Source: Escherichia phage MLP3. From it: a DNA stretch of 64,000 nucleotides. This document shows, one piece after another, positions 2,928-30,638 of the stretch. Position 1 is the first letter of the stretch; each line of letters begins with the position of its first letter. The DNA lies in the sequence record OK148440; one strand, given 5' to 3'. The notes under the pieces are model-generated. The model was not told where the DNA came from, ran no database searches, and was given only the letters and a program-made list of their open reading frames with translations. The translations under genes were made by a program, and so were the position numbers.

Positions 2928-3171
2928 ATTTATTCTGTGTTTCCAGTTCGCTGATACGAACTTTCAAACCGTTAATCTCAGCCTGAGCAGCTTCTAGTTT
3001 AATTAGAGCTTCTTCAGCGTCAGCTTCTGTTTGAAGAACCGCAGTGGTTAGTTCGTATAAAGCTTGGCGGAGAGAATCTTTTCCCATAGCATGAATCTGT
3101 GCAACAAAGAATTGCTTACCTTCCGTGGTTTCCAAAGTCTCTTTTAATTCTTTAGATGTTAAAGTCATCAT
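2926..3171 (-). CDS. coiled-coil protein
   Basis: 81-aa helical, heptad-like sequence; SD GGGAG upstream of ATGATG. Confidence 0.5.
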   Translation of the reverse strand: MMTLTSKELKETLETTEGKQFFVAQIHAMGKDSLRQALYELTTAVLQTEADAEEALIKLEAAQAEINGLKVRISELETQNK

Positions 3172-3338
3172 TACTCCCTTTCATAAATTTTAAGAACTGT
3201 ACCGCCATCTGCTTCAATCTGAGCAACTACTTCATCGCGCTCTTCATCAGAATAAACCAGTTGGTTGTGAAATTTGCCTGTACTATCTTGGAAATACACA
3301 TTCCATTTTGGAGCAGGTTTACGAATCAAATCCATCAT
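3171..3338 (-). CDS. small hypothetical protein (55 aa)
   Basis: ATG at 3338 with AGGAG 9 nt upstream; stop overlaps next start as TAATG. Confidence 0.3.
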   Translation of the reverse strand: MMDLIRKPAPKWNVYFQDSTGKFHNQLVYSDEERDEVVAQIEADGGTVLKIYERE

Positions 3339-3550
3339 TGATCTTTCTCCTCTCGTTCAACCCATGTATGGAAAAGCTCCCCATACACTTTGGCATCATC
3401 AAAACGTCCTTCTTCCTGTGCGAGTTTTTGTTGCTTCAAGCACCATTCAGAACTTTTTACTTCTTCCACTTCCTTGTCTCCTTAAAAAGAACTAATCAAT
3501 AAGACTAGTTCATTTCGTAATACGATTCAGCTCTTCCACTGAACTAATCA

Positions 3551-3862
3551 CTACTTCTCCACCACAAAGAGGTTAACTTCAATGAAAGTTTCGTATTGTG
3601 TTGACTCCTGCTTACGGGTGTAGTAGAAATGACGACCTTCTAATGCACCTCCGTACTGAGTGGCACATCTTTTAACCATCTCTTTTATCACATCTACAAC
3701 TGATTCGCCTTTCCACGGACGTAACCCCTGAGTTGGGACTTTTGCTGTACAGGTTACTTGTGTGTAACCTACATCTTGTAGAGATATCTCAAGAATCAGC
3801 TTTGCCCAAGCATCAAAATTAAGCTTGGGGTTATATTTAACTTCAGTTTTGATATCAATCAT
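3551..3862 (-). CDS. hypothetical protein
   Basis: 103-aa ORF directly downstream of polymerase gene with ATGA overlap. Confidence 0.5.
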   Translation of the reverse strand: MIDIKTEVKYNPKLNFDAWAKLILEISLQDVGYTQVTCTAKVPTQGLRPWKGESVVDVIKEMVKRCATQYGGALEGRHFYYTRKQESTQYETFIEVNLFVVEK

Positions 3863-6079: not shown

Positions 6080-6349
6080 TTACTCCACTGTCGGGAATGG
6101 TTTTAGGTTGTTCATGGCTGTACGAACATCAGCACAGATTTCAGGATCACGATAAGAGAGGAATTTACCATCCTTACCACGAATCATTACATTAGTCCGT
6201 GCTGTTTTATTAGGCAATAAAGAAATCCCTCCAATAAGATGGTTGGTAGGGTGTTGTCCTTGATTAACCTTGTAGTCATGAGTCTGAGCGTCACCATTAA
6301 AGAGATGATCACGAATTTGGATTAAGCTAATCTTCATATTATGCACCAA
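6080..6349 (-). CDS. hypothetical protein, tandem paralog (ARTNV-RG-DGKF-S-RD family)
   Basis: Shares NKTARTNVMIRGKDGKFLSYRD...NLKPFP with adjacent gene. Confidence 0.5.
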   Translation of the reverse strand: MVHNMKISLIQIRDHLFNGDAQTHDYKVNQGQHPTNHLIGGISLLPNKTARTNVMIRGKDGKFLSYRDPEICADVRTAMNNLKPFPTVE

Positions 6350-6626
6350 AGTTAGGGAAAGGTTTCAGATTTTCAATAGACTTAGCAATACGCTTAGGAA
6401 CAGCCTTATCACGGAAGGAGATGAACTTTCCATCAGGACCACGAAGGGCTACATTAGTACGAGCTGTTGTTTTGTTAAACTGAATCATCTCAACAGAGCT
6501 TGTAACATTTTCTACAGGAAAAGTATAGCTCTCAGTTGTGTTCAGAGAAGGGAGGAAATCAGTTACAGTGATGTAAGTTACTTTAGACATATTTATTACC
6601 TTAGGTTCTATAAAAGAAAAGGCCAC
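6339..6626 (-). CDS. hypothetical protein, tandem paralog (ARTNV-RG-DGKF-S-RD family)
   Basis: Shares KTTARTNVALRGPDGKFISFRD...NLKPFP with adjacent gene. Confidence 0.5.
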   Translation of the reverse strand: MAFSFIEPKVINMSKVTYITVTDFLPSLNTTESYTFPVENVTSSVEMIQFNKTTARTNVALRGPDGKFISFRDKAVPKRIAKSIENLKPFPNFGA

Positions 6627-6964: not shown

Positions 6965-7008
6965 AACTCCTTAATATATCAGTGTACACTAAGGAGTATA
7001 CATTATGT

Positions 7009-27212: not shown

Positions 27213-27237
27213 AAAAAAGGACTCTCCTAAGAGAGCC
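27213..27237 (-). terminator. intrinsic terminator-like hairpin downstream of conserved element R1
   Basis: Minus strand GGCTCTC-TTAG-GAGAGTCC followed by TTTTTT. Confidence 0.45.
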
Positions 27238-27915: not shown

Positions 27916-27943
27916 GTTTTTATTACCTTACATTAAAGAGAGA

Positions 27944-28357
27944 TTAAACAACGAATTGGAACGCTTCGTATCCAAACTTATATAAGAAATCGTGTTTGAA
28001 CTTCGTTACACGACCACGGTCACGGAAAGATTTCAGACGGTTACTGAACCCAGCCATCGGCTCAGGGTCAATAGGACTACGAATCTTCATAGCTACAGAG
28101 TGCAGCTTGAAGCGCTTACCAGTGCTACATGCCATCATCACATACTCCATACGAGTAGTCCAGATGTTAAGCACCATACTTGTTTTCTCCGCTGACCAAC
28201 CAGTCTTGCGGGCGATTTCCTTATGGATGTTAAGCTCCAAAGGAAGTGGGAATTGCTTGTTGAATGAAGCCGGATAGAGTTTGACCAGAAGATCAATGTT
28301 TTCTTTATACGTTAAGTAAGCTAATTTCTTGCTTACGTTGGGGAATTTCCCAGACAT
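27944..28357 (-). CDS. ProQ/FinO-domain RNA-binding protein (tentative)
   Basis: N-terminal region LVKLYPASF...PLPLELNIHKEIARKTGWSAEKTSMVLNIWTTRMEY resembles the ProQ/FinO domain. Confidence 0.45.
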   Translation of the reverse strand: MSGKFPNVSKKLAYLTYKENIDLLVKLYPASFNKQFPLPLELNIHKEIARKTGWSAEKTSMVLNIWTTRMEYVMMACSTGKRFKLHSVAMKIRSPIDPEPMAGFSNRLKSFRDRGRVTKFKHDFLYKFGYEAFQFVV

Positions 28358-28390
28358 TTTTGAAGCTCCAAAACAGCGCCGAAAAGAGAG

Positions 28391-29072: not shown

Positions 29073-29327
29073 TTATTCCTTAATAGTTGCTTCAGCTTTA
29101 ATAGGAATAACAGCAACATCTTTACGAGGTGCTGTCGCTCGACCTGTGTTAAGGCAGGCTACAAGTCTATGCTCGTCCGCACCCTTGATGCAGAGTCGAG
29201 TTGAGAACTCAGTAGACAGCAAGATGTACAAATCATCATCTTCACTGTTAGGGTACATGAAGCAATCCCCAAGTCGTAAAGCACTGAGAGGTATTGCACT
29301 CTTACCTGCTGGTTTATTAACTTTCAT
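29073..29327 (-). CDS. small protein, paralog family B
   Basis: LSALRLGDCFMYPNSEDDDLYILL matches family core. Confidence 0.5.
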   Translation of the reverse strand: MKVNKPAGKSAIPLSALRLGDCFMYPNSEDDDLYILLSTEFSTRLCIKGADEHRLVACLNTGRATAPRKDVAVIPIKAEATIKE

Positions 29328-29603
29328 TTTACCACCTTTAGTTATGGACCAATTTATGAGAGAACTCTCGGAAGAATGCTTTCATAAATAGGGGGAGGGG
29401 ACGAATCCTCCCATATCCTATTAATTAATATTGCATGTAAGATCTAACAATTCGATGCTGTAGTGGATAGCGTAAAACGCTTACCGGCATTAAACCCAGC
29501 CCATGAGGGGCTTATGTGAATAAAATGCTCAACATTGAGCGGTTAGTTGATAGGAGATCTGAAGTCCTATCTCAAAGGACTCTCGTAAGAATCCTTCACG
29601 ATA

Positions 29604-30551: not shown

Positions 30552-30627
30552 TGTGGTGCACCCTACAGGACTCGAACCTGTAACCAACGACTTAGAAGGT
30601 CGCTGCTCTGTCCGTTGAGCTAAGGGT
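30552..30627 (-). tRNA. tRNA-Arg (anticodon UCU)
   Basis: 76-nt cloverleaf folded by hand: acceptor GCACCCT/AGGGTGC, D-stem GCTC/GAGC, anticodon stem GCGAC/GTCGT with loop CTTCTAA, T-arm ACAGG-TTCGAGT-CCTGT, encoded CCA. Confidence 0.9.
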
Positions 30628-30638
30628 GCTGAATTTGT

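Follow-up and report, generated by a model that had tools for sequence, protein, structure and literature searches.

Within the 64,000-nucleotide stretch of Escherichia phage MLP3 DNA analysed here (record OK148440; hereafter, the window), a leftward gene of the early region is predicted from its sequence and from a structural model to encode a ProQ/FinO-type RNA-binding domain, making its product a divergent phage member of this family. The explanation that we favour, with somewhat better than even confidence, is that this is a constrained, early, accessory gene specifying a minimal FinO protein that binds terminator-type RNA 3' ends. "RNA 3'-end binding protein" is the limit of what the evidence supports. 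The term "RNA chaperone", used in the initial annotation, claims too much for a bare FinO domain followed by one helix, in which accessory regions are not present and several of the residues that ProQ and RocC need to bind RNA are replaced. Strand-exchange and duplexing activities are carried by the N-terminal extension of FinO and by the linker plus Tudor-like C-terminal domain of ProQ. The phage protein has only 137 residues, with about nine before helix 1 and a single helix after the domain, and thus no region of this kind.

The resemblance to the ProQ/FinO family is borne out at the levels of sequence, profile and predicted fold. The single sequence matched Pfam PF04352 over residues 18 to 87 (E = 3.7e-6; 27.3 bits versus a gathering threshold of 27.0), and PF04352 is also the precomputed Pfam assignment of the cluster to which the protein belongs. 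Other single-sequence searches were uninformative: phmmer against the PDB gave merely a mannosidase at E of about 1, and a word-indexed homologue search returned the protein's own cluster only. An exhaustive search of representatives was needed to obtain a profile. This HMMER search, covering 1.84 billion representative sequences, found only 45 relatives at E ≤ 1e-3, to which a profile-based homologue search added few metagenomic ones, and 40 aligned relatives constitute the subfamily alignment and profile used throughout this work. PF04352 was matched by all 40 (best E = 1.7e-20). When the subfamily hidden Markov model (HMM) was compared with the PDB, all solved FinO domains were matched, namely the N-terminal domain of E. 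coli ProQ (5NB9, 1.3e-17), RocC (3.3e-14; about 4e-14 over 7RGU, 7RGT and 7RGS), FinO (1DVO, 1.6e-11), Legionella Lpp1663 (6S10, 2e-11) and NMB1681 (1.3e-7), and the next entry had an E-value of only 1.3.

The AlphaFold2 model built with the alignment reached a predicted local distance difference test score (pLDDT) of 93.7 and a predicted template modelling score of 0.87, and it displays the helical core and beta-hairpin of the FinO fold; the prediction from the single sequence (pLDDT 43.5) was uninformative. In a Foldseek comparison of the model with the PDB, FinO domains occupied the top 26 places, after which the E-value leaps to 0.7, and distant phage relatives in BFVD share the same fold. 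The domain had been described initially as the N-terminal half of the protein. It is indeed present, but it extends over residues 10 to 110 approximately, which is most of the chain. No further Pfam domain was found at gathering score; sub-threshold Pfam matches to DUF7343 and L31 were rejected, and an NCBIfam search yielded no family, with only L31 noise under threshold.

Sequence comparison likewise indicates that the open reading frame (ORF) is a genuine gene and not a chance ORF, because it is represented in the databases by a 62-sequence cluster (90% identity) and shows low ratios of nonsynonymous to synonymous substitution (dN/dS). Across eight orthologues, dS reaches 0.33 and dN does not exceed 0.03, giving dN/dS values of 0.03 to 0.19. 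Residues 3 to 92 carry I44V as their sole change, and the remaining amino acid changes fall within residues 93 to 131, plus S2A. The ribosome-binding site GGAG is unchanged in all eight orthologous loci. The first 11 codons are nearly invariant in nucleotides among the eight phages, which is compatible with an antisense RNA but proves nothing. Orthologues include SU7_91, ECBP2_0092 and Bas88_0084, and the protein matches PHROG 18901 (E = 4.5e-61). Its composition is basic (pI 10.0; 24 lysines plus arginines versus 11 aspartates plus glutamates). Among the 62 cluster members is EFV9058450.1, deposited under Shigella sonnei, on a 76.5-kb contig that is an entire phage genome inside a bacterial assembly.

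To compare the RNA-binding surface with those of studied relatives, residues were mapped onto ProQ and RocC numbering by hmmalign, with residue roles taken from published work (PMC9674577, PMC7192607). The roles of the tyrosine and arginine that form the pocket for the 3' nucleotide have been established in RocC-RocR (PMC9674577) and in ProQ (PMC7192607). Both residues are retained in the phage protein as Tyr72 and Arg82 (ProQ Y70 and R80; RocC Y87 and R97), show the 10-residue spacing of ProQ, and vary neither among the 40 subfamily members nor among the eight orthologues. Ser55, the N-cap residue (ProQ S53, RocC S70) that opens helix 56-66, is also kept, and 29 of the 40 relatives have serine or threonine there. 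Further retained positions are Thr67 and, in the hydrophobic core, P29, F32, L40, I44 and L85. Besides Tyr72, the subfamily has an invariant Arg69, with Trp66 found in 39 of 40 members, and the basic residues of the phage protein cluster in helix 2, around the beta-hairpin and in the C-terminal helix. Taken together, the docking of the 3' end is probably kept, and the part of the domain that reads the duplex is probably remodelled.

Under the explanation that we favour, the 3'-terminal nucleotide of an RNA would dock in the conserved Tyr72/Arg82 pocket, as in other FinO domains, and the Ser55-capped helix would read the base of the adjacent hairpin. Because the pocket would take the 3' nucleotide and the helix the base of the hairpin, the expected ligands would be U-tailed hairpins of Rho-independent terminators. 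As a precedent within the family, minimal ProQ recognises the lower part of the terminator stem together with the 3' tail and the 3'-OH. Such candidate ligands are plentiful around the gene: between 23 and 42 kb of the window, 24 terminator-like sites were found where 14 ± 3.9 would be expected, and the minus (sense) strand carries 21 of the 24. Produced early, the protein might coat the 3' ends of terminator-ended transcripts, whether phage early mRNAs (the option we prefer), host RNAs or both, and so shift their stability or fate. ProQ offers a parallel, as its inhibition of poly(A) polymerase protects mRNAs (PMC12086684): by occupying the 3' end, the phage protein would act as ProQ does when it blocks 3' exonucleases and poly(A) polymerase. 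Its affinity and specificity should differ from those of ProQ, RocC and FinO, given that the canonical basic residues of the N-cap are gone and that positive charge has moved to helix 2, the beta-hairpin and the C-terminal helix.

Placement in the early region, also proposed in the initial annotation, agrees with synteny to phage SU10, in which coding sequences (CDS) 69 to 125 form the early class (PMC4281155): the insertion site of the gene lies between the homologues of SU10 gp094 and gp095, inside this range. Four strong sigma70-type promoters upstream of the gene fit the published one-plus-three layout of phiEco32 and SU10. No exact copy of the promoter consensus of the phage sigma factor (gp36), TAATGTATA, lies close to the gene; on the minus strand the nearest ones are at positions 6997 and 425, which is consistent with early- rather than middle-class transcription.

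Several observations weigh against binding of terminator-type 3' ends by this protein, or against its importance. The single-sequence Pfam score is barely over threshold and, taken alone, is borderline. The beta-turn glycine (ProQ G37, RocC G52), which the RocC-RocR structure paper calls "nearly completely conserved" (PMC9674577) and which is present in 36 of the 40 subfamily members, is Asn43 here. Ala56 stands in place of ProQ K54 (RocC K71), Ser60 in place of ProQ R58 (RocC R75), Glu41 in place of ProQ K35 (RocC K50) and Asn64 in place of ProQ R62; all of these replacements are fixed in the eight orthologues, as is Glu57 at the position of ProQ T55 (RocC S72). The basic N-cap residues that contact stem phosphates are thus missing, K58 (RocC K73) alone being kept, and by our reading of the hmmalign mapping the phage protein has a basic residue at only 2 of the 11 surface positions that are canonically basic in ProQ. 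In RocC, K71D reduces affinity about 12-fold and R75D more than 100-fold (PMC9674577); in ProQ, RNA binding is lost on mutation K54A or R58A, and likewise on mutation R80A of the pocket arginine that the phage protein retains (PMC7192607). In addition, no cognate cis-antisense RNA partner was identified in the window, in which an Rfam scan recognised no family except tRNA (tRNA-Arg). Genome comparison indicates an accessory gene that basic lytic growth does not require, as it is absent from sister Kuravirus phages: a six-frame HMM search of the window found exactly one FinO-like ORF (E = 6.5e-45), and the same search of the complete SU10 genome found none (best E = 0.4). Lastly, our literature search found no experimental study of a FinO protein from a lytic phage and no RNA-binding data on this protein or on lytic-phage homologues.

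The alternative that survives best, although we regard it as unlikely, is that the protein is a host takeover or counter-defence factor, whose FinO domain competes with or replaces host ProQ on host RNAs. It might stabilise labile ProQ-class antisense or antitoxin small RNAs (sRNAs) after the phage's gp79-type inhibitor has shut off host sigma70 transcription, thereby preventing toxin activation, or else it might sequester host sRNAs. Type I antitoxin sRNAs abound in the ProQ regulon. Toxin-antitoxin and prophage RNAs are among the reviewed ligands of ProQ (PMC9977716), and it is the N-terminal domain of E. coli ProQ that gives the best PDB match to the subfamily profile. However, most basic positions of the ProQ RNA-contact surface differ in the phage protein, so that it need not bind the same ligands, and with an identity to ProQ of only about 20% it is no recent capture of the host gene.

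Slightly less probable still is a repurposing of the FinO fold: without the N-cap arginine, the lysines and the glycine of the turn, the protein would recognise DNA, single-stranded nucleic acid, an RNA feature of another kind or a protein partner, and the extra C-terminal helix would supply the functional surface. This helix falls beyond the canonical FinO domain. F120 within it is invariant in the eight-sequence alignment, and a helix module, RLNxFRDRxRIxxFxxDFxKxFG, is conserved in relatives including gp122 of Salmonella phage 7-11. Repurposing would account for the replacement, and fixation, of canonical RNA-contact residues, for arginine or lysine occurring at the RocC R75 position in just 8 of the 40 subfamily members versus an arginine in about 80% of the wider family (PMC9674577), and for the subfamily's own conserved features, W66, R69 and the extra helix. 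Some relatives also have an added C-terminal domain of about 100 residues with no Pfam match. Yet the diagnostic pocket tyrosine and arginine are retained without exception, as is the N-cap serine in the phage protein, and the protein is strongly basic. We know of no FinO-domain protein with a non-RNA function. The added domain, which carries the motif GNHPF..G....TS.VV, was seen in a subset of the subfamily (P0015, P0016, P0018, P0027, P0031 and 7-11 gp122, the last at 2983-3687 of its locus).

The initial annotation had further linked the gene to two conserved structured elements, R1 and R2, through which it would regulate the early region as their dedicated partner. The elements are indeed structured and near the gene, but adjacency receives no comparative support as a sign of functional pairing, and we consider this partnership improbable. 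R1 and R2 each open right after a stop codon with a hairpin, UAUAGCCCU...AGGGCUAU, end in an intrinsic terminator, and have the blocks GCUAGGGAGAG and AACAUCCG in common. R1 folds more stably than shuffled sequence (z = -2.6), and the R2 hairpins with (C/G)UAGGGGUA loops contain eight pairs with compensatory changes among seven sequences. R1 outdoes its flanking genes in conservation (in ECBP2, for example, 98.4% versus 90.6%), with identities of 98 to 100% in Suseptimavirus and 85 to 87% in Kuravirus. R1 would suit the protein as a ligand, being in the same transcription unit as the gene and having at its end a canonical, U6-tailed terminator of the type that FinO domains bind. However, R1 was found in 104 phage records (85 to 100% identity), including about 80 Kuravirus-type genomes without the gene, versus only about 21 records with gene copies at least 90% identical, and two places (R1 and its paralogue R2) were matched in most of the 60 R1 records listed. 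Phage 4E8 has R1 without the gene, and the complete SU10 genome has both elements without a FinO-like ORF. Co-occurrence of the gene with R1/R2 was accordingly rejected, and since R1 occurs in so many genomes that lack the gene, both elements function without the FinO-like protein; the R1 terminator is one possible ligand among many. R1 and R2 match no Rfam family, and they could be sRNAs derived from 3' untranslated regions or put/nut-like antitermination elements; the phage 7-11 paper describes the antitermination strategy of such phages as undefined. The loop motif UAGGG was also considered as a window-wide signal and rejected, being not enriched (6 occurrences versus 4.5 expected, four of the six in R1/R2).

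That the ORF or its profile match arose by chance, for which one could cite a single-sequence Pfam score only 0.3 bit over the gathering threshold and a phmmer search of the PDB without a relevant match, is already refuted.

A bolder reading, which we regard as unlikely, is that virulent phages (Suseptimavirus, 7-11-like, phiEa21-4-like, and those of Aeromonas and Shewanella) carry their own FinO branch as an early "3'-end cap". A separate phage-borne branch is suggested because a tblastn search of 72,556 plasmids gave no homologue at E ≤ 1e-3. In this reading, the 3'-end pocket would have been kept and the canonical, duplex-reading arginine/lysine N-cap traded for the invariant Arg69/Trp66 and an extra basic helix, and the protein would protect early mRNAs of the phage against PNPase, RNase II or poly(A) polymerase, or stabilise host antitoxin-type sRNAs. 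If true, the version acting on host sRNAs would be a device for post-transcriptional takeover or against abortive infection, at work after host transcription has been shut off.

The source phage is a phiEco32-like podovirus of the C3 morphotype (genus Suseptimavirus, Gordonclarkvirinae), and the 2.5 kb around the gene are 98.8% identical to vB_EcoP-101114UKE3 and 93% to SU7. Compared with the reference genomes, the window shows circular permutation, with late structural genes running rightward from about 41.9 kb (41953 onward, plus strand). Coordinates of the features discussed are collected in Table 1. The leftward transcription unit starts from an approximate promoter and comprises ORFs of 84, 88, 85 (membrane) and 38 amino acids, the FinO-like gene, ORFs of 77 and 82 amino acids, R1 and the terminator; the neighbouring proteins are all without known function.

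Table 1. Features of the FinO-like gene and its surroundings in the window (coordinates count from the first nucleotide of the window).
Feature	Position	Strand	Basis or remark
CDS, 137-residue FinO/ProQ-domain protein (predicted)	27944..28357, including stop	-	ATG-to-TAA ORF; identical to UEN68474.1 of Escherichia phage MLP3
Ribosome-binding site GGAG	28366..28369	-	8 nucleotides 5' of the ATG; read from sequence; SU7 annotates one at the equivalent spot
FinO-domain core, residues ~10-110 (predicted)	28028..28330	-	helices 10-27, 44-52, 56-66, 70-79, 98-110; beta-hairpin 81-83/93-95
Putative 3'-nucleotide pocket pair, codons Tyr72 (28142-28144) to Arg82 (28112-28114)	28112..28144	-	hmmalign mapping
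Extra C-terminal helix, residues 114-128 (predicted), basic, subfamily-specific	27974..28018	-	model, pLDDT 97-98
Single-gene cassette, 468 bp, in Suseptimavirus-type genomes	27916..28383	-	blastn break-points 27910/27915 and 28384/28385
Promoter (approximate; annotated in SU7, at 6324-6351 of the locus compared)	29323..29350	-	transferred via 94%-identical alignment
Intrinsic terminator GGCUCUCUUAGGAGAGUC + CUUUUUU, closing the gene's transcription unit	27220..27237	-	terminator scan; annotated in SU7 and 4E8
R1, conserved non-coding module of ~220 nucleotides	27433->27212	-	~500 nucleotides downstream of the gene, same unit
R2, paralogue of R1	32715->32467	-	non-coding module, ~220-250-nucleotide class
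Strong sigma70-type early promoters	40477-40450, 37991-37964, 37832-37805, 37667-37639	-	upstream of the gene

In the Kuravirus phages 4E8 and SU10, the cassette is replaced by a spacer of about 66 nucleotides with two hairpins, situated between the homologues of the 38- and 77-amino acid ORFs. Positions 2415-2481 of the 4E8 locus and 2744-2809 of the SU10 locus are the counterparts of the cassette interval, and the spacer contains one hairpin that resembles a small terminator and another that is perfect over 10 bp, GCGUAGGGAAUUCCCUCUACGC. The FinO-like ORF begins with ATGTCTGGGAAATTCCCC, and the downstream 77-amino acid ORF also begins with ATGTCT. Short sequences common to the junctions may mark a recombination site.

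Some further elements were seen in the same region. Four tandem terminator-like hairpins lie within about 230 nucleotides on the minus strand (34512-34494, 34486-34471, 34384-34369 and 34305-34286), and a tRNA-Arg(TCT) gene is located inside the early cluster (30554-30629, minus strand). A weak antisense terminator-like hairpin, TTGGGGAATTTCCCAG + ACATTTTTGA, overlies the start codon of the FinO-like gene (28338-28353, plus strand) and may be due to chance; an antisense RNA over the gene start was considered and rejected, as no convincing promoter was found for it and promoter-like sites are not enriched.

In tblastn searches, the protein was 94.9 to 97.8% identical to its counterparts in the Escherichia phage records listed, and more distant relatives (30 to 41%) were found in Salmonella 7-11/SE131-type, Erwinia phiEa21-4-type, Aeromonas LAh-type and Shewanella KASIA phages. 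Depositors have labelled some of these relatives "proQ: RNA chaperone" or "sRNA-binding protein" (Erwinia phiEa21-4-like) and "putative RNA chaperone" (Aeromonas LAh). In UniRef and BFVD, the orthologues from SU7, PAS59 and IME267 already carry the label "ProQ/FinO domain-containing protein", where GenBank has "hypothetical protein". Domain membership is thus already recognised by automated databases for what is a divergent, phage-borne addition to the family. The KASIA genome paper remarks that phages "rarely" encode FinO-like proteins (PMC8541194), and a review of FinO/ProQ evolution mentions phage-encoded members in passing only (PMC9977716). In phage 7-11 (gp125-gp119) and in two metagenomic phage contigs (82 and 98 kb), the FinO-like gene sits in a different, conserved neighbourhood, with an AAA/STAND-like ATPase of about 406 residues upstream, a protein of about 200 residues downstream and, further downstream, ribose-phosphate pyrophosphokinase and nicotinamide phosphoribosyltransferase (NAD salvage).

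Gram-negative bacteria have three major families of sRNA-associated RNA-binding proteins, of which FinO/ProQ is one, and the FinO/ProQ members studied are chromosomal or plasmid-borne. An early-expressed phage FinO protein would offer a simple and tractable case of a virus that brings its own 3'-end binder to manage RNA stability during takeover, and its natural N-cap and turn substitutions would test which contacts of the FinO domain are truly required. Since the gene is present in phages Bas86-88 of the BASEL collection, knockouts are feasible there. The practical gain at present is modest: about 20 GenBank phage records with a "hypothetical protein" could be relabelled "ProQ/FinO domain-containing protein". 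The finding would gain in importance if a phage-specific 3'-end-capping strategy proved to underlie the remodelled surface and the early expression.

Compared with known systems, the phage protein shows the following likenesses and differences. The N-terminal domain of E. coli ProQ (PDB 5NB9), the best profile match, has P22, F25, L34, I38, S53, T65, Y70, R80 and L83 where the phage protein has the same residues at positions 29, 32, 40, 44, 55, 67, 72, 82 and 85 (P29, F32, L40, I44, S55, T67, Y72, R82 and L85), whereas ProQ K35, G37, K54, R58, R62, K75 and D82 become E41, N43, A56, S60, N64, C77 and K84, and neither the ProQ linker nor its Tudor-like C-terminal domain is found. In L. pneumophila RocC (PDB 7RGU), K71, S72, R75 and G52 correspond to A56, E57, S60 and N43; RocC has a long C-terminal region, which the phage protein lacks, and a single sRNA partner. 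In comparison with the FinO protein of the F plasmid (PDB 1DVO) and with FopA, the phage protein has no long N-terminal extension. The minimal ProQ of N. meningitidis (NMB1681, PDB 3MW6), about 21% identical, is a chromosomal, global binder, in contrast to which the phage protein is without the canonical N-cap lysine/arginine and turn glycine and has an additional C-terminal helix. Phage 7-11 gp122, the phiEa21-4-like and LAh proteins and KASIA_p031 belong to the same subfamily, all from virulent phages, although their genomic context differs, and the two-domain architecture formed by the added segment of about 100 residues is unlike that of ProQ with its Tudor-like C-terminal domain.

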